From Nemertoderma westbladi (Eukaryota; Animalia; Xenacoelomorpha), in the NCBI GenBank assembly GCA_032718475.1, contig JAUCBJ010000779.1, positions 1 to 59,240 on the forward strand: DNA of 59,240 bases, given 5' to 3'. Position numbers and translations under genes: made by a program. The notes beneath the pieces were generated by a model. That model did no database searches. It worked only from the letters and a program-made list of their open reading frames with translations, and had not been told where the DNA came from. Of this stretch, positions 19,411 to 54,430 are shown piece by piece (the first letter of the stretch is position 1; each line of letters opens with the position of its first letter).

Positions 19411-19475
19411 TGTGTGGGAAGGGCGTCTCGCCCTCAATCCCACCCCCCTCAGTCCAACACTTGGACGACTAAACT

Positions 19476-25400: not shown

Positions 25401-27315
25401 ATTTATATTAATAGCACCAGTATCAATATTATTTTCTAAATTATTTAAATTATTAGAATTATTCTGTGCTGAATTCGGGTTATTATTTAAATTATTCTGT
25501 ATATTTGAATTAGAATTGGGATTATTTTGTTCGTCTGAATGAAAATTATTATTTAGATTATTTTGCGTATTTAAATTTAAATTATTTGAATTATTTTGTA
25601 TATTCGAATCTAGATTATTATTTGAATTATTTGGATTATTATTTAGATTAGGAATGTTCGGATTTAAATTATTATTGTCGGGCAAAATATTATTTCCTGC
25701 AATGAAAGTTTGATTAGGGTTGTCTACTACGGTACTATTAATATTAACGCCTTCTAGCGTATTATTATTACCCCCCCCCCCCCCCCCCCCCCGCCCGTAC
25801 GGTTACACCAGTCTTGGGTCTGTCGTCCGGTCCCTGTAAGTGGGGTATTAACAAACGTTTCCATAACCTCTGGCTCCTCGTAAATACTACCCGAGCCAGC
25901 CTCACTCTCTGATAGCCCCAACTGCGCCAGTTCTAATCGGCGTTTTTGTTTGGCCTGATATTGCATAAGCCCCCTTAACCGGGCGTGCATATCATCCCGC
26001 ATGCGTTTTCCCGCTCTCTCTCTCTCTCTCTCTATCCTCTCGCAAACTCTGGTTCGCCAACTCTGTTTCTCTCGCCACCCGCTCTCTACGCTCGTTGTCT
26101 ACTCTCGCTTCTCGCTCTCTATGTTCGTTCATCTCTCTCGTCTCTCGCTCCTTACGCTCGTTCTCCGCTCTCGTCTCTCGCTCAAGGCGTTCCTTCTCTA
26201 CTCTTGCTTCTCGTTCCTTACGTTCCTTCTCTACTCTCGTTTCTCGCTCCTTACATTCCTCCTCTACTCTCGTTTCTCGCTCCTTACGTTCCTCCTCTAC
26301 TCTCGTTTCTCGCTCCTTGCGTTCCTCTGCCTCTCTTCCTTCTTGTTCTCTACAATTTCTCGCCACCCTCTCGGCCCTCTCTCTACACTCCCTCAACAAC
26401 TCCCTCTCTTTCTCCAACAACGCAGTTCCCTCAACCAACTGCCTCTCTAACTCTTTCTGGTCTAGCGCCACCATGTCTAATTGACATGCCAGATCTATCT
26501 CTAACACCCTTCTTGCTTTTACGGAGGATGTAGCGGACTTATCGGTCGCGACGGACTCCCGTTGCCTCTCTGTCCTACTAACTTTCCCCCGCTTTCTGGG
26601 GTTCTCGCTAACCAACGAGACCAAATCCTCAGGGTTAACCTCGGATTCGTCCTCGTGCGGGTCTGCCCAACCCACTAACTTAATTCCCCTAGCATCCACT
26701 AAATACGGCCCTAAGTACACTACTTGGGGCTCCATTATCCCGGACCGCCACAGTTCAAATAGTTCGGTGGCGACCCCCTCGCTCTCTCACTCGCTAGTTC
26801 TCCCTGCCCGAAACGAACTAGGTATCTGAAATGTTTGTTCGACTCATCTAGTCGCTGGCTCAACTTCCCCTGGTCTACCTTTGCTCCCTCTCTGGCCTCT
26901 TTGAGCTGTTTCTTTGTGGTGTTGTAGGCCCGTCGAAGCCAATTGCTGGTTCCGACGTCCTCGTCGCCGACATCTCCTCCTCCTCTCCTGGTTCGGCGTC
27001 GTACCGGCGGCCCCATGTCGTTGTTCCGGTGGGCCATCCATCGCCCTTGGCCTGTGGCTTGCTGGCGACTTCGGCACTTCGACTGCCGCCATGCGTGGAC
27101 TCGTCCTCTCGTTGTAGTAGGCGGCCGCCCTCCGCTTGGGCTGCCGGATCGTCTCTCGTCGGCGAATCCAGCATTGCGGGTTGATACCGTCGCGTCGCGG
27201 CCTCGTGAATCGTTTCGTTGGTATCGTCCGGGGTCAGCGGGAGTGTCCTCTCTCCCTCTAGATCTCGGGGCTCTGTGCTCATCTTTAACTTTCTCTCTTG
27301 GTGGCTGGCAGTCAC
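19476..27315 (-). pseudogene. Element B gag-pol (many frameshifts/stops; zinc-knuckle region apparently deleted)
   Basis: ORF pieces 26875-27315, 25992-26735 (ER-rich), 24564-25685 (N-rich), 23383-24246 (gag core), 23255-23479 (PR), 22421-23002, 21417-22487 (RT), 20808-21371 (RNase H), 19476-20687 (IN). Confidence 0.92.
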
Positions 27316-27341
27316 AGTTTACAGTGTTGGGAATTTCGTAC

Positions 27342-27729
27342 TGTGACGGGATCAGGGGATCTCGACCGGTTTATTACGTTACGCGTCACCGTGTAATTGG
27401 GAAAAAGATAGTTTGTCTTTGTCGTTCCGATATTGTTATAGGTTAATCCAGATAGTGATATAGAATATAATAGCACAGTTGATTGTAATTGAATGTTAAT
27501 AGTAATATAAATGTTATACCAGTAGTGACGGTGACGGTACGAAATGTCACCGATCTGCACTAGATGACTGAGTAAACTGAACTGACCGGTATTGGTATAC
27601 AATATAATATATGATTGTCATCCCTAGATTACTTTGGCCTCTCTATCTAGCGGATGCTTCCCTCGCCCTTATTGGCTAATAGTTTAATTATCGGCTCTCA
27701 CCTCTGTGGGAGTGCTTCCACCCCCCCCC
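27342..27729 (-). repeat. 5' LTR of B, interrupted at a C-run by element C
   Basis: Matches 13955-~14338, then switches abruptly to a different TGTGACGGGATCC LTR at 27730. Confidence 0.88.
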
Positions 27730-28271
27730 TGTGACGGGATCCAGGAAGGATCCCGGTTTATCCGGTTGTTTAGTTCATGCATCCCCGCCGTGTGTGAAAG
27801 GTAAAAGGAGTTCGTATCGTTCGTCGTATATAATAATCGGCTGTACGGGTATATAGATACAGGTATAGATATAGATAATGTTGTCGTACACGGAAGGCGG
27901 GATACGGTAATTAAAGTCCCGGTCCTTCCCTAGCTAAACTAACTAACCTAACTAGCACCAATATGATACTGAGATAACTGAACTGAAATGATTACTGCCA
28001 ACTGGCTATATTGCACGGTTGGCCTTGTTACTCTACCTAATCGATGCCTTTCCCCCCTGATTGGTTGATACCCTTGTTGGCGCCCTTTGGAGTGTTTCCG
28101 TTCACTCCACCTGTTCTCTCTTGGTTAGGGGTTTGGCCCCTGACCCTCATTGTGTTTCTCCTTCCCATTTTGTTGGGGTGACACGAGTTGGTGATTACCC
28201 AATCTCGTGGCCCCCAATATTGCTTATCGGCTTAACTTTATGGGGTGTTAGCGGGATTGAATAAGCTAACA
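27730..28271 (-). repeat. 3' LTR of element C (542 bp)
   Basis: TGTGACGGGATCC...GCTAACA followed by the C-run PPT and hairpin as in B. Confidence 0.85.
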
Positions 28272-28939: not shown

Positions 28940-29845
28940 ACATCAAAGCCTCAGTCCATCCCTCCTTGGCGTCCGTGGTGTCCCCGAAAGTTGCACTTCG
29001 GACATCGGTTCTGCAACCGTGGACACACTCCCATCCTGTGGCTCGTCTCGTGCCAGTAGAGACAGCTGGTCCCTTTCTGGAACCGGTACAAACAGCTCCT
29101 TTCCTGGTGGGTCTGTCTCCCACAGTAGTCGCAACCGAGTACCAATGTCTCCCGCCCCACGTCGTCTTCCATCCCAAGCGATCTCCGCGGTCTGTGGAGT
29201 CGCTGATAGGCGAACTTCTGGACGTTAGCGTCCCTGTCTACGTCGATCTCCTCGCCCCTCCCGGGCATCGTCTCTCCGAATACTACCCGTGGTGCCGTCC
29301 CCGGTTGCTTGCCCAACCTGATAGTGCTCCCCGCGAAATCCATTGCCGGCTCCTCGTGCACCCAGGCCCGCTTGTCGGGTCTATCCCAGAAGGCTCTCGC
29401 CCCACTGGCCGTCACCACCCTCCCGCCAACCCAGTCCGTGTCCGAGTGGCCTATCCTCTCGATGGGCGGCACCTCTCCGAACTCGTCGTCGTCCTCGTCC
29501 TCCTCTCGCAGCGGTTCCAACCCCGGTATCCTGGTGGACCCACTATGTCCCTTCCCGCCTTGGTTCTTGCCCGTAACTCTCCATTCCTCAAGCTCCCCTA
29601 GCTTCCTTTGCGGTTGTTCGCCCTCGGCGCCCGCTGGTATGGGCATCGCTTGCAATCCCGACGTCGACTGTTTCGGTGATCCCACCGTCCACCCCAGTTC
29701 TTTCCCTAGAGACTCCCCCGAACTCCCTGACGAAGCCCAACGAAGTTCGTCTAAGGCTGCTTGTTCCTCGAAGCCGTAGCTCTGCGCCCTAGCTTCCTCC
29801 TCCCTCTCCTCTGCTTCTCTCCTCTCTCACAAGTTTGCCTGCCAT
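28940..29845 (-). pseudogene. Element C ORF2 remnant: exonuclease part deleted, three tandem CCHC knuckles retained
   Basis: ATG 29845 (MAGKLV) is joined almost directly to the homologue of B ~17460. Knuckles: CDYCGRQTHQERSC-LYRFQKGTS-CLYWHETSHRMGVC-PRLQNR-CPKCNFRGH. Confidence 0.75.
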
Positions 29846-33700: not shown

Positions 33701-33884
33701 CGAGTTATATATGTTTGGGCCTTCTAACAGATAGTCGTTTAAGCATTTTCCGTTGGTCTTTGCCGATGCGTCAACTACCATCCGCAGCTTACCTTTCTTT
33801 GGGTCTAAAGCCACGTGGAGTGGCAGGTAATATGTCCTGTCCGTGTTCGGTTCGTCAACCGGTAACTCCACGGCCCATCCTTTC
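30771..33884 (-). pseudogene. Element C pol (RT-RNase H-integrase), frameshifted
   Basis: ORFs 32912-33884 (YYLPLH, FYVDD), 31391-32908 (FSDAS, YWTDS, GVDMFGP), 30771-31394 (CCLLE). Confidence 0.93.
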
Positions 33885-35451
33885 AGGAAAATCCCTTGCG
33901 GTATCAGGTCTGCCTTCCCTTTAAAAGCAGCCGTCGCCCTACCTGTAATCGTTCCTTTGTAGAACGTTATCAGCCTCATGTAATATCTAAACTAACACCT
34001 AGCTTATCTACCATCTATTCCGAAAAAATACAGAAGCTCATCATTGATGGTATTGCTGAGAAGGCATCTACCCCTCCAGATGTTGGCTTCTACCTGCCCC
34101 ACCATGGTGTATCCACGCCTAAGTTTCGTGTAGTCTTTAATGGATCTAGCACTGACTGCAAAGGCGTCAGTCTCAACTCTTGCTTAGATCCTGGCCCCAA
34201 CCTTTTGGCCCCATTGACTGATATACTACTTCGCTTTCGTCTTCGCCCATTTTTTGTAGTGGCTGATGTAGTCGCAGCCTTCCACCAGGTCGAACTTCAC
34301 CCCTCAGATAGACTTTGGGTTAAGTTTCTTTGGAAAGGTGGATATTACCAGTTCAAACGTGTCCCTTTCGGATTGGCATCTAGTTCCTATCACCTTCATT
34401 CTACCGTTCTATCCCATATCTACCAGAATGCTGATCCCACCTTTGCCCGCCAGTTGGTTGAATCACTCCTTTGTGATGATGTTGTCTGGAGTGGAGATTC
34501 CCAATACGAAGCAGACAAGTTCCTTCATGATTCTGTTTGTCTGTTTAGCAATGCTGCGATGGAGCTTAAGGTCATTGATTCCCCTTGCAAGGTTCTTGGC
34601 CTATCATTAGATCCGACACTTGACATAATCTATGTTAATACTAGTGTTATCAAACCACCCACCATCTTCAACCGCCGGGAACTGCTCCGTTCTCTAGCCA
34701 AAGTCTTTGACCCTCTTGGTTTATTGTGTCCTTGGACTATTCGCCCCCGTCTTCTACTTCAACGTTCCTGGAAAGTGGGTGGAGGTTGGAATACTCCTTT
34801 ACCTATTGATTTACAATCTGAGTGGTTGTCCTGGTCTAAAGAAGCTGACCAGATAGTTACTTTTCCAAGGTGTGTTCATATCACCCCATCCTCTCACCTT
34901 CACATATTTTGTGATAGCTCATCTCATGCCTATGGTTTCTTGGCATATGTTGTCCAGCCTAGACTTCAGTCTTTCTTGTATTACGGCAAATCTCGTGCAG
35001 CACCTTTGAAGCCAACCCACTCAACCCCTCGTTTAGAACTACTGGCTGCCCTTATTGGTGCTCGATTCCTCCACCATGTGCAATCAGCTATCGTTCAACC
35101 AGACCATGTGCATCTTTGGACTGATCCTTGTGTGTCCTCTATTGGATCCGTAAAGGCGTTGCGAAACGGGATGTCTTTGTATCCAACCGCCTCCAAGAGA
35201 TTGCGACTCTTTCTTTACCAACCCAATGGCGATATGTGCCTACCACCTTGAATCCTGCTGATTTACCTTCCCGTGGCACCCATCTTTCTACACTGTGCAA
35301 CAGTGATTTGTACCGCCATGGTCCTGCCTACATCACTGAACCTGAAAGCCATTGGCCTCAAGTTCCCACACCACCGCCTCAACTTCTTACAGTAGAAGTT
35401 CCTGATCCATTATTGGATTGCCCTATTGATATTTCACGTTTCAACGTCTGA
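33883..35451 (+). pseudogene. BEL/Pao element D pol fragment (RT, RNase H), inverted relative to its gag
   Basis: FYLPHHGV, RVVFNGS, GPNLL, ADVVAAF, RVPFGLASS, LCDD, FDPLG, HIFCDSS, PRLELLAA, WTD, NPADLPSRG. Confidence 0.9.
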
Positions 35452-36910
35452 TTTTTTGTTTGTACGTAGGTATCACTTGCCTGGATCCGACCGAAAAAAA
35501 AAAATTTCGAAAAAATGTACTGGGGTGGTTATATTGCAGCACCAAAATTACAAGTAGTGCACAATTTTCACAAAATTTGAAAGTTACATTTTCGGCTAAT
35601 TATTTTTCAATACAGATTTTCTGGGGTGCAAAATACATTGGAAAATATTTTAAAATGATATGATTACTATAAATGGCTGTTTAGACCTCTCTGCGTAGGA
35701 AAAAAATGAAAAAAACAAGTAACCAGCACTTTTCAGTTAGAACACAAAATTTTTAATTCACTTATACTATGCTATAAATTCACATTTTCAGGTTTTCGAG
35801 GGCGCTGATTCTAATGGAATACATTTCAAATATGCTAGATCATTGCTACTTGTATTTTTCGGCGTAATTTGGCAAATTTTGGTGCTAGCACCAAATTTCG
35901 TACCCATCACCAAAAAGTACAAGTTTGCGATGTCCAGTGCTGTTTTTATTGATTCCATCGGATTCAGGACCCTCATAAACCCGTATAACGCAAGAAACGA
36001 GGTGAAACTATCTACTGATCAATTTGCATATTTTCCAAAATTTGGTGCTGGCACAACAATTTTCACCCAACGGCGAAAAATACAAGTTTGAGAACTCCTA
36101 TGAAATTTTTACTGCTTCCATTGAATTCAGAACCATCACAAACCCGTATAACGCAAGAAACAAGGTGACACAATCAATTGATATATTTGATGGTTTTCAA
36201 AATTTGGTGCTGGCACCACATTTTGCACCCACATCCGAAAAATACAAGTTTGAGATGCCTAGTTCGATAATTATATATTCCATTGAATTCAGAACAGCCA
36301 TAAACCTCTAAAACGCAAGAAATAAATTGTCACAAGCAATTTTATCTATTGAATGGAATTTCAAAATTTCGTGCTAGCACCAAAATTTGCACACAGCACC
36401 GAAAAATACAAGTTTGATACGCTTAGTGCAACTCGTATATATTTCATCGAATCCAGAACCCCAAAAAACCCCAATTGCGTAAAAAACAAGTTTCAAATAA
36501 TCAATTTACAAAATTGACATATTTCAAAATTTGGTGCTGGCACCAAAATTTGGCACCCACCGAAAAAAACAAGTTTGAAATTTCTAAATCAATTTATATG
36601 AATTCCATCCAATTTCTAACACCAAAAAACCGGTGTAAATCGAAAATAGATATGTTACAATTCATATTTAATGAAATGTAATTTTCAAAAAACGTCTCAA
36701 AAAAGTGCCAAAAGTAGGGTTAAAAAATGGTGCTATAAATCGAAAAGTATGCAATATTTTTGAAAACGGTTTTCACTACTAGGAAGATAATAGATTTTTA
36801 GGAAAAGTCAGAAAGTTTCAGATTCCCAACTGCGTTTGTTTCAGAATTATAATAAAAAAACCACGGGGGGGGTCATATTGACCCCCCCCCCCCCCCCGGG
36901 TTTAATAGGG
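35452..36910 (-). mobile_element. TTAA-targeting (piggyBac-like) non-autonomous DNA element, one end visible, internal ~163-bp repeats
   Basis: Minus-strand terminus TTAA|CCCTATTAAACCCGGGG...GTCAATATGACCCCC interrupts D exactly at TTAA 36911-36914. TTTGGTGCT(A/G)GCACCA repeats at ~35878, 36041, 36202, 36368 and 36530. Confidence 0.65.
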
Positions 36911-39084
36911 TTAAAGGGAAGGCAGACCTGATACCGCAAGGGATTTTCCTGAGAACGGCAAGGTACAGTATAAGCAGGATCTGATTCAACTGGGTATTCC
37001 TTGATACCAACTGACTCAAGGCTCCATAGTCGAGTAATATCGTCATCCAACTCGAAAACAAAGAGTGAAGGACTAGATATATGGTCAATATTAGATAAAG
37101 AATTCATTGGTCCAGAAAGGACATAACCAAAAAAGGTAGATATGGCAGTAGGTAAACCTGGAACTATCAAAGGTTGACCAGTTACTGACCAAAGTTGATC
37201 AGCTCCGATCATGAGGTCGATGGTGCGGTTGTTCCCATCAAAAGAATCGGCCCAAGGACCAAGATGAGCGATCTGACTGGGAAGGTATAGAAGACGTTCC
37301 TGTCGCATGTCTGGACAAAGTCTCTCAGTGGTCCAAGCCATCAACGTGATAGGTTGTGGAGAGAAAGTACTCCTTAGGTCAAAGGATACACAATGGGATA
37401 GTTGAGAATATACCTGTTCCCCAAAGGATCCGGTGGTTAAGGTACGGGACTGGCTAGCAGGTAGACCAATATGAGAGGCAGTGCTACCACGAATATAGGA
37501 ACGTTTGGACCCATCGTCGAGATACACGTGAATCCAAACACCATTGTCTGAGTTTGGCGAAGAAATAAAAGCCCTTGCTATCTTAACAAATACAGTATAA
37601 GGTTCCAAGTCTGTAGCCGAATTTGCAGGATCAATGGATGCTGAACTAGGTTGCCAAGAAGTAGGCGGTTGATAGCTAATAGGTTTATCAGGTCGACTAT
37701 TAGTAGTATTGGCGGCAGAAGAACTAGACACGCCTGATTTCTGACTATAGCATAATAAGGAGTGATGAGATTTACCACAACTGCGACATTTGGTGGTTGA
37801 AGGGCAACTGGCAGTTTTATGTGGACCAAGGCAATTATGGCATAAATGTGAAGATCTAATTAAAGCTGAACGATCTTCCGGTGATTTACTCAGGAAGGCA
37901 GAACAGAGTTTTATACTATGTGGTTTACCACCACAGGCTAGGCAAGAATGACGTTCAGAGACAGGCAATGCAGATACAGTAGATCGCTGAAATTCAATAC
38001 GATTATGGCTGGAAAATCTCTGCTTAGAATCTGCAGTAGGTTTGGGGGTAGAATTATTTGGAGGTTTAAAGGCCATAGCCTCTCGAGTTTCCAGCTCTAT
38101 ACGAACAAACTTAAGAAGCTCAGTTAGATCAAAACGATCAGTAGTATGGCTGCGGTTCCATTCAAGTACAACCTCATTAGGAAGCTTCTGAATGAGCAAT
38201 GGGGCCAGTAATAAAGAAGTTAATCCAGAGGATTGAGTACTATTTTGTGGCTGGCTGGAAGGTTCAATCTCAGAGGCCAGTGTCTGAATTTCGCGGAGAG
38301 AACCCTGGAATATATCAATAGTCCTACGAAAGGAACCTACATCATTAGCTATGATAGCAGGCAGGCTACAAATTCGGGATGCATACAACCCAATAAGATG
38401 ATGCGGATTCCCGTATCTTTGTTTCAAAAGATCAATGGAAAGCTGGTAATTGCAGGCAGAAGCAGATATGCCAGCTAGGGCATCCTTAGCTTCACCCTGG
38501 AGAGAGTGGCGGAGGTACACGAATTTCTTAATATCTGGTAGGCTGGTTTCGTGCACTAATACACTGAATTGGTCCCAAAAAGGGCGCCATTGAATAAAAT
38601 CTCCATTAAAACGAGGTACCTGAATTTTAGGTAGGCCTTGAATATGTTCCTGCGGCCTCGAGTCTGATGAAGATATTGAATTATTATCAATGCGGTCTGA
38701 GGCACGATCGAGACGAGTAAGGAGACGCTGTGACTTAAACAACAACTCATCCATCTGATCAAAGATACCACGATCAAGGGGCGCATGTCCAGCCCGATTT
38801 GGGGTACTCCCTTCCCCAAACTGGCTGTCGGTATCGACTTCTAAAGTTTGTGAAATTACATGGTTCAAGGCAGAACGCTGAGTTTCAAGTCGGTTGATCC
38901 TATAGGCGAGGTCATCCGAATCGGCTCTATCTCCAAGGTCACGGACAGCACTCAAATCAGCTATAAAACGTCTACAGCGCGTACGTTCTGTATCTAATTG
39001 CAGCCTTAAATTGGCAACTTCCGGGATACCGGTAGGCGGTGTACCGGTAGCTGGCAATGTGGTATCGTTTTCGAAATCTGACAT
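36911..39084 (-). CDS. BEL/Pao element D gag-protease (open up to the TTAA insertion)
   Basis: LPKIQVPRFNGDFIQWRPFWDQF (DUF1759-like), three BEL knuckles (CLACGGKPHSIKLC, CHNCLGPHKTASC, CRSCGKSHHSLLC), protease YLDDGS, IDLMIGAD, LWSLESVGI. Confidence 0.92.
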
Positions 39085-39622
39085 AATTAGGTAGGCTAGG
39101 AGTAGGATGTTCTATAATACCGGTACCGAATACCACATCAGTTACCGTTATGGAGGTTCTGAGTTAAAGTGTAGGCCGATTGCTGTACCGGTAAAGGAAT
39201 GTAAAATGGCAGGACGTACTGTTAACGGTTATCCAAGTATGAAATTCCGAGGATGTTGATCGAGTTTATACTGTTACAGTATACCGGTAAGGTGAAATCG
39301 AAAGGTTCATCGCAGTAATCCGGTTCGAAGAGTGTGGCAACGCCAAAGGTTGGTAAGAGAAAAGGTAGGCATAACTTGTGGACTGTATAATATAATAAGT
39401 ACTGAAATATAATAGGTCGGCAGGTAGGTCGGCATACAGACTGACAGGCATGACAGGTAAGAAGGCATTTGGTACTGTACCGGTAGGTAAGTACGGTATG
39501 TGTGCAATAAGGCCATAAAGCATATAATCAAGGTCCATTATATATCTCTACTGTAGTTAAGGAGTCTTTAAGTCTATAAGTAGGAAAGGAGTCTATAAAC
39601 GTCGGCACAGTCTATAAGTAGG

Positions 39623-40885
39623 TGTAAAAGCTTCTGTGGGATATAACTGGCCCCTTTGCTTCGCAATCCAGTTTCCCCCCAGGCGCTGGAATACTCTAAA
39701 AGGGTTCTCTAACTGTATATATATTCCCCTCGCCCTCAAGGTACCGTTACTGGTGTTTTAACGGACATAAAAGTCATTCTGTTATATACGTGTTTTAGCG
39801 GACATGGTAAGACAAAAAACCTGCAATGCGACAAATACCTTTCATAGCTTAGCCGTGATGATTCATATTACGACATCTAACAGCTGGTTGCTGACATGGA
39901 AACAGCCATTGAACGCATGGTTCTTTGTTTGGCTTGAACCAATCAGAGCGATTTTTCCTGTCGACGTGTAGCTTTTCGGTCGATCATAAGGAGTGTGTTC
40001 AGTCTTACAGTTTTTTCTTGATACTTTGTGGTTATTGCTGTCTAGGCCAGGAATAACGGCTCTAGAGTCAATTCATTTCATACTTTTAGAAGAAACATTA
40101 GTAGGCTAAAATTATAGAGCGTATGACTGTTATCAGTTCTTAACAACTCATATCACATATCGGTCCATATCAGTTCATATCATAACTTAACATACCGTCT
40201 TAATGCTGTTTACTGTTGTGTTTTGGTTGAATATTATTTGGAGAACATATATAAAGAACCCAAATTTCCCAATTTTCTTGATACACTACAGGTTAGAGAG
40301 ACGGGTTATATATAGCGATTGCGACTTATATTGTTGTGGTTTGTAGTGAATTTAATGCTATTTGATAAGCACTACATTGGTCCGTTGCTATTCCCTTTAT
40401 ATATGATAAAATTCATTGACGGTCGGCAAATTAGTGAGCAGTATTGTGTGTTACCGGTAGTGTGCATGATTGTGACTGATAACTAAGCATTTCCTAAAGA
40501 ATGCGCCTCATACGTGAATCTTAAGCCTTACCGACTTACCGTTGTGATTAGTGTAAGTCATATCTCGGTTTACTTAGATAGAGCGCCACGTCCTAAAGGA
40601 ACTGTTAATATTTCCCGAAAGTAAATAATATTAGTCAGAAATTAATTATTAATGATCAATCGAATAATACAATACAGTAAGCTTCACTGCAATAATAATT
40701 TAAGCCCTCAGAATCCAGTCTCCCGGGATTATCCAGCGGGTGAATGGACGCGCACTAGGCTGGCTTCTGCTAATGTTGTGTTTATTGGTATTAAATATTT
40801 GTCATCTTCTAAAGTATATTTATAAACCAAAAGACATATAAATTTTGGCAGGTTAAACTGCTAAAGGTCTTCAAAAGCGCGTACA
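39623..40885 (+). repeat. 5' LTR of A
   Basis: TGTAAAAG...GCGCGTACA. Only three differences from the 3' LTR seen by eye (39751, 39782, 40054). Confidence 0.96.
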
Positions 40886-40896
40886 ATAACAGTTAT
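40886..40896 (+). promoter_or_regulatory. Non-tRNA primer-binding site ATAACAGTTAT, complementary to LTR segment 40123-40133
   Basis: Directly follows the LTR, has no TGG, and pairs with ATGACTGTTAT (10 Watson-Crick pairs + 1 G-U). Confidence 0.75.
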
Positions 40897-43119
40897 TGAC
40901 TTTATTGCAGTAAGCAATAAAGTTGAAAGTACCGGTCGACCGGTAAACCTGAACCGGTACTTCTGTAGGTCAGTAGGCCCAACTGCCAGAACCGGTACTG
41001 CTGTAGGTCCGTAGGTCCAACTGCCAGAACCGGTACTTCTGTAGGTCCGTAGGCCCAACTGTCCTAACCGGTACTTCCAGTATAAGTACATTAGTATTAT
41101 TCGATTTTGATTATTGCATACAGGTAGGCTGTTTAAGAGATTAGGGACTGTACACCCCTTGTTTCTTTTGGAGCTTACTTATTTCTGTCAGTTTTATTTA
41201 CATGTAAGTTAATATTGAGCTGAAGACGTGTAAGTCTGCTCAGATTGTTCAGATAATTGTAGGCTGGACTGTTGTCGGATTGTTGTTGGGTTTGGAGAGA
41301 TTACTGCGTGTGTAGAGTTTGTCCGATAGAGTGCCAGTTAGTAAGTTGGGGCAGCCATAGCTGTAAGGTCAATCCCCTATTAAAGAATAAGTCGTACTAC
41401 CGTGTTAGAACGCATACTAACTAACCATTTTGGAATCTGCACATACTGTAGTTTATTTAGGCTTGACAGTATTCTGCCAGCGTTTTGGCCTGTGTTTGTT
41501 TGTGTGGTCTGTTCAGGTACCGTAATAGTTATTACTCAGATATTTTGTAGGCTGGATTGTTGTCTAGCTATTATTAGGTCTGAAGAGATTGCTGCGTGTG
41601 TAGAGTTTGTCCGATAGAGTGCCAGTTAGTAAGTTGGGGCAGCCATAGCTGTAAGGTCAATCCCCTCTTAAAGAATAAGTCGTACTACCGTGTTAGAACG
41701 CATACTAACTAACCATTTTGGAATCTGCACATACTGTAGTTTATTTAGGCTTGGTGGTAGTCTGCCAGCGTTTGGTTTGTATTTTGTTTGAGTATTCTGT
41801 ACGGGTAGCGTAATATTTATTATTCAGAGTTTATGCGATTATTCGCAACATTCATGTCCCCAAGTTTATTCCTACAGTAATTGTGTTTGTTACACATACC
41901 GTTATAGTTAAATTAACCCCGGTACTACACGGGCTGCTTGGCGTAGGACAAGACTGGTGACTTTGTGCTTCGGTCACTCCAGCAGATGCCGTGGTTCTTT
42001 TAACTGTTCAAGTATATTTAACTACTGATTATTTGTTGTACCAGTGCTTGTACCTAATTTAGGGTTTAGTGTACAGTGCTTTCCGAAAGTAATTAGTGTG
42101 TAGGCAGTATATTTGTGTTGTAAAGTGGTTAATAGGCACGCTGGATCTGGTAGTCCGCGGTAATTAACTTCTAGGTAGGAACACTCCGTGATACATAACG
42201 TAGTACCTATAGCGATACGGCTATAGGTCGTCAGGCGGTGGTATTTTCCTATCTGGACAGTGCAATATATTTACTACTACTTATTATTTTCAAATACCGT
42301 AGTACCCTGTCCGTTGTAATAAACCGAATTCTAACCCTTTGTTAGACTGGTTTGTAGACTTCCTGTAAAATTACCCTAAAAATTAGTACGTAATATTTTT
42401 TGTTGTGTTTAATTAGAGATTTAATCTCACCCGTATCGTACGTAATTTGTAGTATTAAGTAACTTAGGTAAATTAGAATTATCTGTTTTAGTGTCCCATA
42501 AATAGCACTTCACTGAGAGCGCACAGCTTCTGTGTAGTGACCCCCAGAAATAATAACATTTATTTCAAATATTGACAAAACCCTTTTTAAACGGGTATAT
42601 ATATATATTATAAATCAACTCAAACGATTTATAAATAGTAGGCCTGCCATACAACAACTAGGTCTCAATATCAGTTGGACTACTGCTTAAATAACGGTAA
42701 CAAAGTAAGTTAAAGTAACCAAGTAACCCTAAATATTCAGAAATTCAATTATTATAAAAATAATTGACATACCGGTATTTACCATAGGCTTATTATATTT
42801 ATTCTATAAATTCGAGCTGAAATCATACCGGTATTCTGTAATAATTCTAGTTCATAATTATACTTATATATACTATAAGTGTAAGCTGTATACCGGTATT
42901 CACGATAGGCCTATTATATATTTATATATATTTGTGCTAAAATTATATACCGGTACTCTGTGACAAAACTAGTTTAAAATACTTATATATATTATAAGTG
43001 CATACCGGTATTCTAATATACTGCAATAAATTACCGGTACTAGGCCAACGGTCATACTGAATTACTAGACTTGCTTTAACTGTAACTATAGCAGTAAGTA
43101 TTCAACTGTATAGCTAAAC

Positions 43120-46100
43120 ATGTCTGACACTCAGCAAAACCTGTCAGACAGTCTAATCGATACAACCATCTGTGACACAGATAGGAGTGTGGAGCGATTA
43201 AGAAAGGAGTTCAGCTCACCTCCTACTGAAAGAAAGGTCATCCCTCCAGTAGTAGTATCAGACCCTAAGTTAATCCAACACCGTAGGTCTATCATCGGCA
43301 CTCGGGCCCAAGTCAAACGGAACCAGGAAGCAGCTGCCCCACAGCAGCAACAGCCTAGTCAAGAAACTTGTTCCCAGCGATTCAATAGCTCCAGTAGTTC
43401 GGATACTGTCGAACTGACCCCCGAACGCGGATTGCAGATGACGGCTAAAGCCTACTCAGACCCCCTTCTCACCCTTCCTGCCGCAGTGCTAACTACTATA
43501 TTGATTGCGGTGGAGGAACATCAAGCCGACTGGGCGAGAAATAAGCGAGCGACCCAAGATAATTATGCGGGATACGCCAGGGAAGAATTGATGTCGATTG
43601 TCGAGTCACAATGGAACTTTCCCGGACCCGGACTCCCGTTAGATCTGTCCGAGGCTACTTGGGAAGATATACACAGGATGGGAGTAGCTAAAGATACGAT
43701 GGATCCAGCTGTTTGGAAGAGGTCGGCAGCAGGATATGTGCAGGGATTCTTCGGCTCCTTAGAGAGATTAGAAGAACAACTGTTTCGACAACCCCAAGGA
43801 GCTCAAGAGCAGGAAGAACTGCTATATCAAGTACGCGAAAGAACCCTACGCATTCGACTAATCCTATCAGCTTTTGAGGAAACTTCCAAAAGGAGACAGG
43901 ACACGTCACTGCAGGTTGCTGTCAAAACTTGGTTCCAGCGGGTAGGTCTCCAAATCCAAGAAACAGACCAGTGGAAATCCCAGCTGTCTGAGAGACTAAC
44001 TTATGAAGAACCAACCGATGCCACCCTTTCTCAAGTGGAAGGCGAAGAGACCTCAGAGAAACCACGAACGAGAGACGCCATAGACATTTATCTGTCCGAC
44101 TATCAGCGATTCCTAGGAGACGAAGAGTTGAGGAGACGGCTGTCTGGACTTTCCCCCAATAGTGAAGGAACCCAGCGTGTGTTAGATTCAATCGATGCTG
44201 AAATGTTAGCTGCTAACCAAGCAGAATTTTGATGAAAAACTCCGCCTCGCTAGAGTCCAAGAAGAAAAAGTAAAGAAAAGACGGATAGAGGAACAAAAGG
44301 CGGCGGCTACGGCAGAAGCAGAAGCAGAAAGAAAAGCAGCGGCGGCAGAAGTAGAAGCCGAAAGAAAGGCAGCCGCGGCAGAAGTAGAAGCAGAAAGAAT
44401 AGCAGCAAGGGCAGCAGCGGCAGAAGCAGAAGCAAAAAGAAGGGCAGCAGCGGCAGAAGCAGAAGCAAAAAGAAAGGCAGCGGCGGCAGAAGCAAAGGCG
44501 GAAAGGGCAGTGGCAGAAGCAGAACGGAGAGCGTCTGAGCAGACTACCCAACTGGAGTTGGAAAATCTGCAAGAGACGCAAGACAACATAAATAAACAGT
44601 TAACTGCTAGTCACATGCAGATGATGAGAAAATCTACTCCCAAACGCCAGGGATACACATCATCGGAAGAAAGTGAAACCACCGATCCTGAAGGCGGAGG
44701 AAATAGATCTCGTCTAAGCAGGCGTAGAAAAACATCTCATCGTCACAAATTGCCTGATTTGCCCCCAGCTGTTAGAAGACAACTAGCTAGCACAGACTTA
44801 GCGAGTACGGAACCCACATACCAAACTATTCAGGTCAAAAGACTCCCTACAATAGTTGATGAGCCTGAAATAATTAGGCCTGTCGTTCCCAAAGTCACAC
44901 CTGTGCTAGAGACCCCTGTACTTCCAGAGCTTAACTCTAAGTTCCCTTTACACAGTACTATACTGCCTGTACCCGGTAGAACAGTCCATGAGAATATTCC
45001 TGTCCTGGAAGCTGAGAGAGAAATCAAAGATTTGTCTCCCGTCGTCCCACGTCAGCCCGCTACAATGTTGGCAACTCCCGCTTCGGCGGTTGAGTGGGTA
45101 GAGGAGGGACGGCGGGGGATGAATCTCCTGCTCAGACAGATGCAGGAGACTGTTCACCAGCTTAAGGGAACAGTAAGGGAAGGTAGAGCAGAGTTGCAAG
45201 AAGTGCAGCAAAGTATCGCACTGGAACGCGACAAGTTAGTCAATATACAAAAGGGCATACCAATACCCCCTGTAACATTGTGTCAACCTGTTAGGTCTGA
45301 AGTATTACATGCGCAAGGTGTGGAGCCTACACGCATCTATACTGCTAGTGAAGTAGAAACTCCTATAGCAAACCCTATTAAGGGTGATTATAGACCTGTT
45401 ATTAATGATATTCCCTATAGACCTGATAATGATCCGAGAAATTTATATACCGATAATTCGATATTAAATAACACGATGGCCCAAGAAAGCTTTACGCGGC
45501 AGATGGCTAGAACAGAAGCCCGCCAAGAGGTCAAAGTGGGAGAGATCGTCAAATTCAATGGAGATGAGATGAAATGGTTACCTTTCAACGAATATTACAA
45601 AGACAGCATACAGAACTCTGTGCTATCTAACGGAGAGAAACTTAGGTTCCTCATCAAGTGCTTGGAAGGACCTCCCAAGTTAATGGCGTTAAAGTTTATT
45701 GGACATCCAGAAGGATTAAGACAAGTATGGGATACATTAAACATCAGGTATGGTAACAAGGATAACATAGCTAAGTATTTGTATGCAAAATTAGTAGCCC
45801 CCCGACACTTCCTTAGTAGCGGGATTATAGAGTTTTCCGATGAGATTCAAGAGATCTGTAGACAATTGGACTGGTTAGGTAAGTCTCATGAATATCAGAG
45901 TTCAATGGTTATTGGAGCCGTAGTCTCTACTTTACCAAAGGGTGGAGTATGTACCCGCTGGGACAAGAAAGTGTTGTACATGAATGAACAACAATGACGA
46001 AGTCCTACCATGGCTGATCTCATGTCCTTCTTAGATGGTGAGGTAAAACTACAACTCATCAAGCAGTCCAGAGAGAAAACATCGGAAAATAAGGTAAGTG

Positions 46101-49100
46101 AGAAACCCGCTTCTAGGAGAAGAATAACACCGGTGTGTTACACTGACGACGGCGAAAGCCAAGTTTCTCAAGAAGAGGACAGCGGGAAAGATACTGAGCG
46201 ATCTTACTACGTTGACAAAACCTCAAAAGATGTAAGTAAATACAAGGCTCGAAACAACGATAGGAGAGAACAGGTTGCCAAGACCCCCCCTCAGTCTCCT
46301 AACAGAATGCACCGAAGAAAACCCGAAGAAAAAACGAGAGTGCATCAAGTTACCCAAGGTAAGGTGAGTAACATAAAACCTAACTGTGCGCTGTGCGACG
46401 GGACCCACCGTTTGAGTGCGTGTGCTGAATTTCTAAAGAAATCCCTTGTAGACAGACGTGCAGTTGTGTGGGACAAGCGGTTATGCTATAATTGCCTCAG
46501 ACCAGGACACCAACGGCGAACCTGTTACTCCGACATAAAGTGTGCAAAGTGTGGCGCGAAACATCACATCTTGTTACACAGTGAGTTCGAACGAGACAAA
46601 CAGAGTCAGGTAAGTGAGCCCGAACTACATGTCCAATTCAGTGATGTAAACGGCACTGATCAGGAGTCTGAGATGGAAGGATTCTATACTGACGAATTCT
46701 CCGACGCCAACGAATCCTGTTATCTAATCAATACCGCAGTGTATCGAGCACTTACTTATGAAAAGGACACCAACAATGAGTTTCCCCCAACTACTTTTGC
46801 CAAACAACCATCTTGGAAAGCTCCAACTTCCAACGTAGGAATCAGAGAATTTCCTGTAGTGCAGGTAAGAGTTCACGGTCTTAACAAAAGTTACATAGTG
46901 AACGCCCTCCTTGACTCCGGCAGCACAGGAACATTCATCTATCAAGAATTAGCCGAAGATATCTTTGCTGGACAACCCAAATTCCGGACTAAATTGAATA
47001 TGTCAGGAATTATGCAGGTTTGGAAATCTACCTTAACGGCAGATTACTATGTAGGTGTGTTGTCCACCCCCCAGGATAAGTTAGGAACACAAGGTATAAG
47101 GTCGGTAAAAATGGTGGCTATAAAGAACTTCGCTACTACTCAAGCAGACCTTTATAATTGGGACGAGGATGAGAGCATCCAACATCTTGAGATACCTCGA
47201 TTCCAGACAGATTATCCTGGAGTGCAAATCCTCATCGGCCAGAATGCACATGAGGCGCTCGAAACATTGGAGAAACGGCCTGCTCAACCACAGCCACTGC
47301 AAACCTATGCAGTAAGAACTAGAGTAGGTTGGTACTTTACTGGCCCTTCCCGCAGGACTCTCGAAGAGAGAATGCCACAAGAACACACATACCAAGTACA
47401 CGATTGGGAAGTGGAGAGCAGTGAGGTGGACGAACTAACTGAGGGAACACCATACTCCTCAGATAATGACGACATCTACCAACTCTTCGATGAAGAGAAC
47501 ACAATCGACCTACTTACAGAAAACCAAACTTGGAAAAGTCAGGTGAACCTAGGTCAACTGATTCACCCATCGGTACCCATCGCTTACAATGACGAACTAA
47601 ACGATGAGATAGAGCGCTACAACGCTAGAACTCGGGACGAACTAGCTGTACGATTCTTTACTCAGGAACTGGTAGAGCCCAATTCATATGATAAGGCTCT
47701 ATCGATAGAAGAAGAAAGAGCCAAGCAAATCCAGGAAACAACTACACGTTTTTTAAAAGACCAAGGTAGGTATGAAATCGGCCTACCATTTCGAAAACGA
47801 GAACCTAGATTTATAAATAACAGACCTTTGGCAGAGAAAAGAATCGCTCAATTACATCGACGACTTACAGCTAATGCTTCAGCGAAAGAAATGTACCAAA
47901 CTCAGCTGAGGAAATTTATAACAAAGGGATACGCGGAGCGAGTACCGGAAGGAACACCAGTGACTGAGAGAACGTATTATTTAACACATCATTACGTTCC
48001 CAAACCCGGTAAACCCCATGAAGTAAGAGTCGTATTTGATGGCTCCGCTCTATATATGGGCCAATCCCTTAATTCCGAGTTGTTACCAGGACCCAACTTA
48101 CTCCAATCTTTGTTGGGAATACTATTAAGATTAAGACAATATTCCATCACGTTCGCCTCTGATATCGAAGGAATGTTCTTACAAGTCAAGGCGCTGGATA
48201 GAGATAGAGATAGCCTGAGATTTCTGTGGTGGCCTGAAGGAGACCTCAACCAGAAACCGGTAGAGTACTGGATGACCATCCAGGCTTTTGGGATCATATC
48301 AAGCCCTTCCAACGCCTGCTCCGTGGTGCGAACCACTGCGAATGACAACCGAGACTCCTTCTCCAAAGAAGTGACAGACAACATAAAACGCAATATATAC
48401 ATGGACGACAATTTAAGGTCCCTTCCATCAGTAGAAGAAGCCATAGCTGTCGCGAAAGGAACGGTAGAGTGTTTGAAAAGAGGTGGATTTCGACTGACGA
48501 AATTCACTAGCAACTCCCGTGAGTTTCTGGAAGCCATACCGGTAGAAGATCGCGGAGCGAAAGACCTAGACTTGATAAAGGACGATCTTCCTGAAACCAA
48601 GACGCTAGGCTTGAAGTGGGACACTGAAAGAGACATCCTGTTTTTTCAGTTGAAACAGCGAGATAATCCAGTTCGGACCAAACGGATTTGTTTAAGTATC
48701 CTGAGTACTTATTTCGACCCATTGGGATTTATTAGCCCAGTTATATTGATTGCTCGGAGTTTAGTACAACAGATGTGGCTTGAAAACCACTCATGGGACG
48801 ATCCGCTTAAGGGAGAATTGTTGAAGAAATGGATGAAATGGGAAGATTCTCTACCTGCCATCGAGAACTTTATAATATTTTGCATATTTGTGCATATTTT
48901 GGCCATGTTCTTCCTACGTATTCCTATCAACTCCATGTGTTTGGAGACGCCAGCGACATGGGAATAGGTATAGTAGCATATCTGCGAGTCGAAACTCCGG
49001 ATGGAATCAAGGTCGCCTTGGTTACCTCTAAGGCATTGATTAACAACAAGTTAAAGGTTCCTCGAGCGGAGTTAAAGGCGGCTTTATACGCTACAGCCAT

Positions 49101-51277
49101 CGGCCGGAACGTAATGGAACAAATCGACTATACACTGGAGAAAACGGTTTATTGGACCGACGCTTTACTCGTGTTGGAGTATCTCACCAATGAAGTCTGT
49201 CAGTTTAGCGTTTTTGTTACTAACCGAGTAGCTATTATTCTTAGTCGCACAAAGATAGATCAATGGAGACATTGCCCTGGTACGATTAATCCAGCCGATA
49301 TCGCCTCCAGGGGAGCAACTCCACAGGAACTGATAGATACTCCAGATTGGTTGGGTGGACCCGACTTCCTGAGCAAGGAAGAGGATGAATGGCCTCCTCA
49401 CCTTACTACGGCAGAGATTAGACAAGCCAAGGGAGCGGAGACAGTCAAACCTAAAACCCGGGCGAGTAAATCGAAGTTATTTAAACCGACTATCGATCTA
49501 TCTGTATTACATACTTCCGGGAATGATGCTTCGGATCCACAATCCCTCAACACAAATAAGTCTGTTGTGGAAATTAGAGATAAAGATTGGAAATCTGGAA
49601 TACCAGACGTCTCGCAAGGAATCTCACCCATGCTGCAGAGAGCAATGCATCATTACAGTTCCTGGAATCGGCTCTGTAAAGCCGTCACATATTTAAGATG
49701 ATGTTTTCATCATCACTACTCCAGGACGAAGACCACTAGTGATCACGCTCCATTGACATCTGCACAAGTTCATGTTATTAAGAATTTACCCAAATATAAG
49801 ATATCTGATCGTTTTCTAAAAGAGAAAATTAGTCACCAGGAGTATGAAGAAACAAATAAACAGATACTGAGACTCCTGCAATGCTATGAGGATTCCGAAA
49901 AGTACTTCCTGTTGTTGAGAAATCCACAGATGCGCTTAAGGGATCGATTCTCGAGCACAATGATAGATGGGTTAATACGTGTTGGAGGAAGACTCACCAA
50001 CGCGCCCTTATCCTTTGACACCAAATTCCCCATACTTATTAGAAATCTTGAAGTACAAATCAAGATGATTGTAGACGTTCACGGTAAACTTTATCATGCA
50101 GGTAGAGAACGAATTCTTAGCGAAATTCGAACTCGCTATTATTTTGATAAACCCCGTAGAGCTCTGAACCAAGTTCTTAGGAACTGCATACCCTGTAGGA
50201 AAGCATTCAGTAGGCCTTTAACACAGCGAGAGGCAGAATTACCTAGGGAACGAGTAAGCTTCTATGAACCACCTTTTACTAATACTGGTGTAGATTTATT
50301 TGGCCCTATTGAAGTATATCGTGCAAGGACTATAGTCAAGAGATGGTGTGTCATCTTCGTGTGCATGACTTGTAGAGCCATCCATCTCGATATGGTGAAC
50401 GATCTATCTACTAACAGCTTCGTCTTAAGTTTACGACGACAGATCGAGTAATACCATGAGATTGGATAAAGGAACGAACTTCATAGGTGCCAACAACGAG
50501 ATACAGGCTTACGTGAAGGACTGGAACCAAAGACAGGTGGATGACCAGCTAAGGATAACAGCGTCTAGCTGGACCTTCAACGCTGCCGACGCCCCTTGGT
50601 GGGGAGGAAGTTGGGAGAGATTAATTCGAAGTGTCAAAACCGCATTTCACTTTATAGTGCCATGCCGCGCGTATCTCACCGACGAACTTTTGCGGACGTT
50701 AATGGAGGAAATTGCTGCCTATCTCAACGAGAGACCGCTTATGCCAGTCTCATCGAGTCCCGATTCCCTGGAAGCGCTAACACCCGCGCACTTCCTACTG
50801 AAGAAACCCGTAGCCATGCTCCCACGATCGGAGATTGCCGACGGAGACGAATACTGCCGTCGAACTTGGCAACTTATGCAGTTGCTATCCCGTCGTTTCG
50901 CTGACCATTTCAAGAAACATTATCTGCCCACGCTACAACTTCGAACTAAGTGGTTTGCGCAGCAAGAAAACGTCAGCGCCGGAGATATGGTGCTTATTGT
51001 AGATCCAGACCTCCCACGTAAACGGTGGCAGACAGGTCGTATCATCGAGACACACATCTCAGATGATGGTTTAGTACGCTCGGTAGAACTCATCGTCATG
51101 CGGCGTAACTTCAAGAAGCCAGGCATCATCTTTGAGACGCAACAACTCAATCGCCCAGTTGGTCGTTTATGTTTACTGGAAAGAGACAGAGAACTCTCTG
51201 GAAACTATGGAAGGCAAGACACTCTTCCCACTACCACCTCCCTAATTCCTCAAACATCTAGGGACTCCCTAACGTGA
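43120..51277 (+). pseudogene. Element A gag-pol (disrupted near 44230, 45995, ~48890, 49699, ~50450)
   Basis: Gag core FNGDEMKWLPF, BEL knuckles CALCDGTHRLSAC/CYNCLRPGHQRRTC/CAKCGAKHHILLH, PR ALLDSGS, RT YMDD, RH HVFGDAS/YWTD, IN GVDLFGP/DKGTNF/LCLLE. Confidence 0.95.
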
Positions 51278-52903
51278 TACGTCTGGAGTGGGTGTATGAC
51301 TATATTATTTTATCTATTTTGTTATATTTTATATGCGAACTTTATTATGTACTTTATTATAATCGTTTTTATTCAATTTTATTTAGTAGAATGTTATTTT
51401 AGTGATTATTTAGTAGATTAGTGCAATATATTAGTGTTTATTACGTACATAATTACTTATAATATATATTTAGTGCGACGGCGAGAAATAATTTTTTATC
51501 TTTCCTTACTGTCCGTATCATATTATAAATACGTGACTACAGTAAGATGAAATGTCCGTACTTATTAAAGTACAATAAAGCCACTACTATATTCAAGTAT
51601 TATTGGTAGGCAGAGTATTAGGAATGCAAAGTTCAGATCCTCGTGTCTCGGCTAAACCAAGCTCTGGGTAGACCTTGGAAACGACTTGCCTCTTCACACT
51701 GACATTGCTTCGTGCGATATTGCTCTTCTACCTTATATTAAATAATACATATAGTAGCGTGATGTCCCTCTAACAGTAGCGTAAAACGCAAATAAATCTG
51801 TTAAACCTTTTGACCATCTGTAATTCTAGTCGATTAAGATATCGTGGCACCCACCGATATACTTGAAAGACAAATTCTAGAATCAATGGTTAACATCCCC
51901 AGACAAGTTCTGGAATAAATCGGTGCCCATCTTAAATATTAATTTAATATTTATTAAAATCTGTAAAATTCAGATCCGTTAACAATTCTAGTCGATTAAG
52001 ATATCGTAGCACTTCCCGATACTCTTAAAAGACAAATTTCATAGAATTAAGGATCCTATGTCCCCAGACCTGCTCTGGAATCAAATTGTGTCAATTTTAA
52101 CATCAAATAATAAAATTCACGGGAATAAATTTAAATTCATATTTTTAAATGAATTTCATAAATTGTCATTTTGTACAATTTATAACATTCCCAAAATTCC
52201 ATTAATTAATAGATCATGGGAGCGGAGATTCATCCTGTTGAGTGTATTAGAGTGCGAGAATCTCCAACATATAGTCAATAGCCGATAAAATTAACAAAAT
52301 CATGCATAAAGAGGATATTGACAATTAAAGAATTATTATTAAATAGCATCCCAGATCTGTATGCATGAGAATTACCCTAATTCTACCGCTAGCATTCCAT
52401 AATGTCACCATAGCAACACCCACGCTAGAATTAGAAGCAAGTTAAGAGAACAATAGAAAGCTTGTCACATTGCATAGCATAGAGAATACATAGCACACTG
52501 TTAGTATCCAAGGATACACAGTAATGACGTGACATTCTGGAAGGCACTGACTAACGGACAAATGGCCTGTATGTGTACAATTGGTGACAGTTGTGTGGAA
52601 TTTGTGCGTTTGTAGGTGAATGTTACTGCTAAGGTGTGTTTACAGTAGCTAGTCGCAATTGTGAAAGTAGCCCAACTCTCCTATAGAAAGAACCTAAAGT
52701 GGATTCAAGCCTTTGGGACGGACAGTGGAGTGACTTGTGCCGGTTATCGTTGTCGTGATGTTGCTACATGTTGGCGTAAACACCGCGACGACGGTACATC
52801 GGCGCTGAGAATCCCACTGTCCGGGGGCGAAGAGAAGTAGGCAGCGACGTCCGCTCGCCTAAACATTAACTCATTTCGATATTAATAAACTCAGATAGCA
52901 GGT

Positions 52904-54352
52904 ATGACGGAGTTGATAGAAGATGATCTTGGTATCAGGGAGCGATATACTCTACCTTTGCCAGCATTTGTGGATAGCTTGATACGCGGTGAAACCGATC
53001 CAACCGTTACGGAGGACGATGGTCGTTATATCGAACCGCCGATGTCCCAAGAGCAACTTACGCGTGAATTGGACTAGCGAAAATTCACCTCTCGCTATAC
53101 GCATCGTAATAGTACGTATATGGACTTCCTAACTACCGGCCATCCTATCGATTTACATGATACGGACGATGTAGACACCGAAAGGGAAATGGTTCTATTT
53201 AAATATCATACCCAGCGGCGTCGTAACGATAAACCGAGAATAGATCATGAAAATTCTATTCGTAACAGACTGGGAAGACGAACCAATATGCCTAGAATCT
53301 GAGGAGATTCAGCCTATCGCGCCCGGAACAGCGACAATGATTACATCCTAGAATAGTATCAAGGTCCACAATGTCTCACTGCGTACGATTATCGCCATGC
53401 CAACTATGTTTCTCGGCAACGTTATCGGTTATGCGCATCGAGAGACCACGATACGCCCATGGACACCAACGTCCGCTGTTCCTATTTCCAAGAACAACCG
53501 ACTATGGAAATTTATTGCGCATATTGCAGACTCAATAACTTGCATATCTTTGCGGTTTGCCCTCAATTTATGACTCAATGTCACCATTGTCAACTAAAGG
53601 GACATGCTAGTTTCGACTGCCCTTTTAATCACGATTTGGAAAGCGTAGATGAAATGATCACACTGCGTTACATCAGAGCTTGGGAAGCGAACGCTGATTT
53701 ACATTGTGATTCGCGCCATCGCTATTATCCCGGACGCGCTTACGAAGGAGTTTATGCGTTCCATCCTTATCTATTCGCTTCTGTTGAACAGAAATCACGC
53801 ATATCGAGTTACGAGCTACTGAAGCGCGTCGGAGAATGTATTTCAACTAAATTCGTACGCAAATTTCTCAGGAGTGTTAATCCTAGCGACCTTCATTCCT
53901 ATAACTTAATCAATTATATCCGTCAGGATCCGGACTATGGAGACTTGTTTGTTAACTCACACCCCGAGTTGCAGGAAGTACATCGAAGGCCTTACGAATA
54001 CCGAGCCCGCGAACGCGAGTTGGAAAGGACCATTAAACCCCGGAAGTTTCTAACTGCCTATGGTCCACCCACGGCCCTCGTTCAGACCACTCGTAAAGGA
54101 CCCGTAAGAGCGGCTGTCTTGAAACGAGCTCTCAAAGCCGTTAGACCCCTCTCACCTGACGTTGATGTCAATCAACCCGGTACTTCGACTGGCGGATACA
54201 CCGACCATAATCCTACACCCTCTGATGCAATCATATTGCACCCTTCACCCATGAGTTATAGCCCTCCTTGTAAAGTGGCTCGCCCCAAAGAGAAAAGGAC
54301 TCTTGCTAGCTTTAAAAAACTGCGTAAACGCCGTCCGCGCAAGAAAGACTAA
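52904..54352 (+). pseudogene. Element A extra 3' ORF (~480 codons, three in-frame stops) with tandem CCHC zinc knuckles
   Basis: ATG 52904 and ORFs 53120 and 53459 are all in one frame. CAYCRLNNLHIFAVCP..CHHCQLKGHASFDC; basic C-terminus KKLRKRRPRKK. Confidence 0.7.
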
Positions 54353-54430
54353 CTGTTTAGAGTATTTACGTATATTAGAAACTGTGATTTTGTATATTTT
54401 ATAGACTCAAATCCCATTTTCTGGGAGCGG

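Follow-up and report, generated by a model that had tools for sequence, protein, structure and literature searches.

Element A occupies positions 39623-55693 on the plus strand of the window, the whole 59,240-nt stretch of Nemertoderma westbladi DNA analysed here, and is an element of about 16 kb with BEL/Pao domains. Its long terminal repeats (LTRs; 5' copy 39623-40885, 3' copy 54431-55693, both plus strand) are 1263 nt long each, have TG...CA termini, and show three differences between the two copies. The target-site duplication GTAGG is found at 39618-39622 and 55694-55698 and a purine-rich tract lies 5' of the 3' LTR (54419-54430, plus strand), so that the BEL/Pao criteria of TG...CA LTRs, target-site duplication, and polypurine tract are all present in A. 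The gag-pol region (43114-51277, plus strand) is interrupted in this copy and spread over several stop-to-stop frames. A profile scan detected DUF1759, the Pao peptidase (Peptidase_A17), the integrase zinc domain (Integrase_H2C2), and DUF5641, which is the domain order of BEL/Pao elements. The seven frames of A that were scanned gave no match to a chromodomain but Pao domains instead. The nearest proteins are of the Pao type (35-45% identity), the best matches bear PF05380, and those named come from cnidarians, echinoderms, hemichordates, crustaceans, one nemertean, and fish. Extra Cys/His-rich open frames are located between integrase and 3' LTR both in A (53357-54352, plus strand) and in element C described below (28951-29826, minus strand), and have no Pfam match. 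A is inserted in the leader of D, a divergent BEL element (33866-39111) whose gag is on the minus strand and whose reverse transcriptase (RT) piece is inverted on the plus strand, with an unrelated tandem-repeat insert between the two. The window further contains a LINE-type RT fragment (8368-9528, minus strand), another retroelement-like fragment (15800-16657, minus strand), an acidic-repeat open frame (56870-57931, plus strand), and a GTGAGGGAA-type satellite (58338-59240).

A second element, A', is related to A via homology of the LTR, the leader, and gag, and its 5' LTR of 1107 nt lies at 4654-5760 on the minus strand. An AATAAA in the leader, about 30 nt past the 5' LTR, is conserved between the two (40914-40921, plus strand, and 4620-4613, minus strand). 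In each element the putative primer-binding site (PBS) directly following the 5' LTR is complementary to a segment within this LTR. The PBS of A, ATAACAGTTAT (40886-40896, plus strand), adjoins the LTR end ...GTACA and forms 11 bp including one G-U with the segment ATGACTGTTAT (40123-40133, plus strand; copy in the 3' LTR at 54931-54941), which would provide the 3' end of a self-primer. Because of the G-U pair the PBS of A is not an exact copy of its segment. The PBS of A', TTAATAGATTT (4643-4653, minus strand), matches the segment AAATCTATTAA (5409-5419, minus strand) in 11 of 11 pairs. The segments are homologous by alignment, are 763 nt (A) and 766 nt (A') away from the LTR end, and leave a long loop of about 750 nt to the PBS. 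They also represent the longest PBS-anchored run in their own LTRs, the runners-up having 8 and 7 bp, respectively. Comparing the 11 pairs of A and A', six are identical, four are changed on both sides, and one is changed on one side; given the local divergence of 0.44, four such matched changes would be expected by chance with a probability of roughly 5e-4 to 2e-3. The coordinates and letters of both pairs, the homologous position, and the compensatory change had been claimed in the original prediction and all reappeared on rechecking. Its further claim that no BEL element in this stretch has a TGG-type PBS applies to A, A', B, and C, the 5' LTR of D being undefinable. At all four defined 5' LTR ends (A, A', and two of B) TGG is absent within 9 nt, the LTR ends of A, A', and B do not carry the 18-nt PBS for tRNA-Arg or tRNA-Gly of the ICTV criterion, and a search of the window for tRNA genes found none. 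The missing tRNA site leaves the protein-based assignment to BEL/Pao standing.

Single cases of such pairing are not extreme: in AT-rich sequence, 9- to 11-mers that match by chance are cheap, and related families could have inherited such a match. Among dinucleotide-shuffled LTRs, 41 of 5000 contained the match of A with one G-U allowed, about 1 in 100, while the match of A' was found in 2 of 5000 (exact) and 41 of 5000 (one G-U). A looser shuffle search over offsets gave 4/200 for each element, and a later one 3/100 (A) and 2/100 (A'). In the public sequencing runs X1, X3, X4, and X5 aligned on 39500-43200, neither a PBS/segment variant was seen among the 40 of 530 rows listed, nor a joint at the intron-like stretch described below; these data are uninformative on both points.

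Families B and C provide a second pair. B is a tandem array with a common LTR (10963-27735, minus strand; LTRs at 27735-27342 and 14402-13955, fragment at 11085-10966) with its pol at 19476-24246 on the minus strand. The LTR at 13955-14402 (minus strand) has 448 nt, the copy at 27735-27342 is 5'-truncated. The B segment ATTTCGTAC (14150-14158, minus strand; second copy 27545-27537) and the PBS GTACGAAAT (13946-13954, minus strand; second copy 27341-27333) form 9 of 9 pairs in both copies, and shuffles reached this in 1/200 and 2/100. Of C the window contains the 3' LTR (27730-28271, minus strand), which adjoins the truncated B LTR, while the 5' LTR and the PBS are outside. The segment TTTAATTAC (27907-27915, minus strand) is homologous to the B segment and differs from it at four of nine positions. 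The PBS of C was predicted blind as the complement of 27915-27907, and the prediction was recorded before the four public sequencing runs aligned on the C LTR end (X1, X2, X3, X5) were inspected. All nine predicted letters matched the loose ends at the C LTR end in X1, X3, and X5, which represent three samples; owing to an admixture of 3' flanks, agreement over the whole loose end is only 0.51-0.73, and X2 had no loose-end row listed at this position. None of the 25 variant rows falls within the C segment, which is in or near the deepest-covered bins. The B/C pair thus adds four compensatory changes to the four of A/A', giving two independent pairs in this genome. The ends of the B and C LTRs also contain a strong GGGATC...GATCCC hairpin (13955-13985 and 27730-27760, minus strand), resembling a U5 inverted-repeat stem.

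For a broader comparison with other animals, the RT of A was aligned with 48 of 120 listed relatives and 96 loci were retrieved. A long-range direct repeat was present in 40 of these, and in 19 it seemed to define the 5' LTR end. L052, first taken as TGG-type, was dropped as the repeat there lies within the RT and results from overlapping contig ends, and 18 loci were kept. Self-pairing of 9-15 bp is found in 17 of these 18, or in 14 of 15 families if near-identical copies are collapsed. Two relatives (L035 and L090) have contiguous pairing of 10-11 bp, 14 have pairing of 10-15 bp across a junction, one has a junction with a mismatch (L083, 9 of 10), and one (L026) is the sole TGG-type element and shows no self-pairing. 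Its TGG-type PBS is located 5 nt past the LTR at the start of the contig and, we presume, resembles a tRNA-Tyr site. In the junction type the pairing sequence spans a GT-AG intron-like segment inside the LTR, and three to nine of the paired bases are contributed by the upstream exon. The first junction search demanded GT and YAG alone, but the best junctions of L018, L038, L040, L042, L071, and L092 nevertheless are on GTAAGT, GTACGT, or GTAAGG donors. Contiguous pairing at offsets 0-2 is weak in most relatives. Once the first results were available, the offsets allowed were extended from 0-2 to 0-5, and the shuffle controls use the wide range. At most 2 of 100 shuffles reach the score in 14 of the 17 self-pairing loci, and weaker values were obtained for L038 (8/100, compared to 0/100 in the earlier junction test), L035 (7/100), and L083 (3/100). 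When the PBSs were matched against the LTRs of other families the median score was 6.5-7.5, with chance highs of 14.5 (B PBS on L086) and 10.5 (A PBS on L051). A splice-junction partner was also sought for A, A', and B and was no better than the contiguous one; the 12-13 bp junctions of A' use poor donors. Scans of 19 further loci with unknown LTR ends revealed 10-13 bp candidates in 14, nothing convincing in L028, L029, L031, and L095, and a match inside the LTR in L089. These loci were left out of the main count because shuffles reached 9-11.5 in the first scan and the second was run without shuffles.

The letters of the PBS vary among the families, which a conserved tRNA primer would not be expected to give. 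The RT tree (59 rows) unites A, B, C, and every self-pairing locus in a single group (96/92) from which L026 is excluded, and within this group the contiguous and junction forms are intermixed. Long branches lead to A, B/C, and the outgroup D, which leaves the root and the placement of these elements unsure. The tree contains no named references of the Sinbad/Sailor, Suzu, Tas, BEL, Pao, Dan, or Flow clades. The loci L081-L096 are BEL/Pao elements with LTRs in contigs filed under bacterial MAGs, most likely reflecting contamination of these assemblies by host-animal DNA. Scans of viral contigs found no relatives, and the exact LTR motif had no match in metagenome contigs.

Chance is a very improbable explanation, since both sides changed at eight positions across the two independent family pairs, a prediction made blind came true, and the pairing is present in nearly all relatives, although cross-family scores sometimes reach 10-14. 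The original prediction had named the loss of complementarity in a larger set of families as an outcome that would speak against it; the complementarity was retained in 17 of the 18 loci. Its core proposal, priming from the own LTR without a tRNA, is strengthened by the B/C covariation, the blind C prediction, and the 17 relatives; it is still a reading of the sequences, and its Tf1-like transcription start is doubtful, as detailed in the following. Overall, we assign a probability of about 85% to the primer being an LTR-derived RNA and priming being independent of tRNA.

In the original prediction the transcript begins at the first paired base, 40123 in A and 5419 in A', so that exactly as in Tf1 the first 11 bases would be the primer. 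The PBS abuts the LTR end, the first base of the segments of A, A', and B is an A preceded by a pyrimidine, and the pairing ends there. The segment of C, however, starts with T, so that this initial A, which had been part of the prediction, carries little weight. Extension of the duplex upstream is weak, being significant at p<0.05 in 2 of 16 cases (Fisher p=0.013), and not significant in A (0.32) or A' (0.23), which would also fit a start at the first paired base. However, a TATA box 25-35 nt upstream of that base is absent in 18 of 18 elements, and promoter-like signals are located further upstream. In A a CCAAT box at 39939 is followed by an initiator-like TCAGTC (39999-40004; both plus strand, motif matches only) with a candidate start near 40001, which is 122 nt upstream of the segment. 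The counterparts in A' are at about 5589 (CCAAT) and about 5525 (initiator-like) on the minus strand. In both elements CCAAT precedes the initiator-like site by about 60 nt, at -184 and -170 from the segment, respectively, which speaks against a start at the segment. Initiator-like sites are found at -89 to -122 in A, A', L018, L059, L085, and L092, and a clear TATA is present at -133/-135 in L069 and L051, two junction-type families. The promoter motifs used here are short and common. A start at the first paired base would also leave a first exon of only 3-9 nt in the junction-type relatives. In addition, the B and C segments are in the loop of a predicted hairpin (z of -1.4 and -1.6 only) whose 5' arm is upstream of the segment. 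AATAAA or ATTAAA occurs within 100 nt after the segment in 11 of the 13 relatives listed, as needed for the R overlap. Transcription starting about 110-120 nt upstream of the segment, with the segment being an internal primer, is thus the favoured reading of these motifs, and the Tf1-like start is unlikely.

Immediately 5' of the segment lies a motif, TTATAGAGCGT in A (40112-40122, plus strand) and TTATAAGAACGT in A' (5431-5420, minus strand), that could itself be regarded as a TATA box; transcripts of the 5' LTR would then not include the segment. In A', TTATAAGA(A) lies 10 nt before the segment and deviates from a TATA box at a single position; the A motif, however, is a poor TATA match. Alternatively, the pairing could be real but structural, acting in packaging or circularisation or in controlling splicing or translation, while something else would serve as the primer, for example an internal tRNA fragment. 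Half-tRNA primers exist in copia elements, according to the accessible part of the source (PMC6317226). However, the pairing is primer-sized and at the exact primer position (offset 0-5) in about 18 families with unrelated letters, a second conserved primer site was not seen, and the one TGG-type element is the one without the pairing. Together these variants are quite improbable.

Flanking structures were searched for around the duplex. Tf1-like flanking duplexes were above chance neither as local R-U5 pairing (0/16) nor as U5-leader pairing (0/16). The minimum free energy (MFE) fold of A predicts an LTR arm at 40681-40695 (plus strand) to pair with the leader at 40902-40915 in a U5-leader-like stem, and the same stem is predicted in the MFE fold of A' (4852-4837 with 4634-4619). 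These folds are suggestive of a U5-leader stem in A and A' (p=0.08 for A), which is not a general feature. A further helix, joining the TTATA motif to the bases past the PBS, had first been taken as proof of an upstream start, and turned out not to be above chance in A and A'. The LTRs of A and A' also contain an intron-like stretch 3' of the segment (40292-40851, plus strand, and 5225-4692, minus strand) with an AG|GT donor and a TTGGCAG acceptor in a 19-nt block identical between the two; a further GTAAGT is found at about 40553. The stretch of A includes an ATTAAA at about 40789 and the U5-leader arm. If it is removed, the distance from the segment to the LTR end becomes 203 nt in A compared to 204 nt in B. 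Judged from these motifs, the stretch may separate spliced mRNA from unspliced genomic RNA.

In the mechanism that we propose, the transcript would start some 110-120 nt 5' of the segment (near 40001 in A) and would contain the segment internally, not as its first 11 bases. The segment would fold onto the PBS and an RNase H-type cut 3' of it would free a 3' end, as described for Tf2, for which cleavage of the self-primer by RT is reported in the accessible part of the source (PMC5341516). From this end, RT would copy U5 and then the remainder of R as far as the cut, followed by a jump to the 3' R. The primer end could be copied during plus-strand synthesis, which could keep PBS and segment matched and would explain their change in lock-step. 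In A, A', B, and C the segment would be used as it is, whereas most relatives would generate it by splicing out the LTR intron. The persistence of this intron would be explained by the strong-stop DNA ending at the cut, which is downstream of the junction, and the rest being copied from the unspliced 3' LTR. Since the intron is kept in both LTRs, the spliced copy should be the 5' one or a separate RNA, which argues for the segment being transcribed from the 5' LTR.

A separate RNA would mean priming in trans, namely by a short transcript of the 5' LTR or a solo LTR, spliced in the junction families and shortened or cleaved at the segment, while the genomic RNA stays unspliced. The intron retention in both LTRs would be explained without a half-spliced genome, and the 750-nt loop of A and A' would be irrelevant. 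The poly(A)-like signals after the segment inside the LTR and the very high copy number of these LTRs in the sequencing runs would also fit. However, a primer shared among many copies would tolerate the mixing of families less well, and the described self-primed elements work in cis, as far as the accessible parts of the sources tell (PMC10085805, PMC5341516). We consider a trans primer rather unlikely, and regard the more exact proposal, priming in cis by the internal segment, as slightly more probable than not. For the widest scenario we would give even odds: a large BEL/Pao lineage of aquatic animals has dropped tRNA priming and uses an internal primer cut from the leader RNA. In many families this primer would be assembled by the spliceosome from two LTR exons, which would tie DNA copying to splicing, and the absence of the intron in A, A', B, and C would have come about or been maintained more than once within this lineage.

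Among the LTR superfamilies, BEL/Pao has been studied least. In the BEL/Pao literature surveyed we found neither self-priming nor a splice-built primer reported; subscription papers, Repbase/GyDB notes, and supplements were outside the scope, and an earlier mention is therefore possible. The accessible main text of three BEL/Pao surveys mentions neither PBS nor tRNA (PMC3118150, PMC554778, PMC6238403), and the accessible parts of three other papers contain nothing on BEL/Pao priming (PMC8220671, PMC3601003, PMC7472051). If our reading is true, each of the three superfamilies of LTR retrotransposons has evolved self-priming, with the BEL/Pao form departing from that of Tf1 in its internal and often splice-built primer. 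It would explain why tRNA-based annotation of such elements reports no PBS and would offer a simple sequence rule for locating their primer sites. It would also predict insensitivity to silencing by tRNA fragments, and make precise and cheap predictions on RNA ends.

The replication of the Belpaoviridae is described as poorly understood by the ICTV, which lists a PBS of 18 nt for tRNA-Arg or tRNA-Gly as well as genome sizes of 4.2-10 kb (PMC8742986). A shares with them the domain content and order, the TG...CA LTRs, the 5-bp target-site duplication, and the purine tract, but has no tRNA PBS and is 16 kb long compared to the 4.2-10 kb given (PMC8742986). Self-priming has been described for Tf1/Tf2/Tj1 and Tf1/sushi elements and predicted for Tcn1 and the copia TAR elements, as given in the accessible parts of the respective papers (PMC6317226, PMC4600332, PMC10085805, PMC5341516). 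Judging from the same partial sources, Tf1/Tf2/Tj1, Tf1/sushi, and Tcn1 resemble the elements presented here in having no tRNA site and, directly following the 5' LTR, a PBS complementary to about 10-11 bases of their own LTR (PMC4600332, PMC10085805, PMC5341516, PMC6317226). By this analogy, the BEL/Pao elements likely work like Tf1 self-priming, yet they are outside the Tf1/sushi group. They belong to BEL/Pao whereas the Tf1-type elements are Ty3/gypsy chromoviruses, and their segment is probably internal, judged from the surrounding motifs, and not the 5' end of the RNA. Two further flanking duplexes ('pretzel') are part of the Tf1 priming structure in the accessible text (PMC10085805); they were not found generally here, and the loop is up to 750 nt long. 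Furthermore, in many BEL/Pao relatives the primer would have to be assembled by splicing, which is not seen for Tf1 in the accessible sources. For the plant Ty1/copia TAR elements (Houba, Osr-1), a case absent from the original prediction, self-priming was likewise predicted from PBS-LTR complementarity of at least 10 bp; in contrast, these are copia elements of plants, and the accessible part of the paper describes no splice-junction form (PMC6317226). The fungal GalEa copia elements have also lost the tRNA PBS and have a self-complementary feature instead, the Conserved Hairpin Site. As far as the accessible text describes it, the partner in GalEa is outside the LTR and the palindrome is conserved, whereas here the partner is in the LTR and its letters vary by family (PMC5445492).
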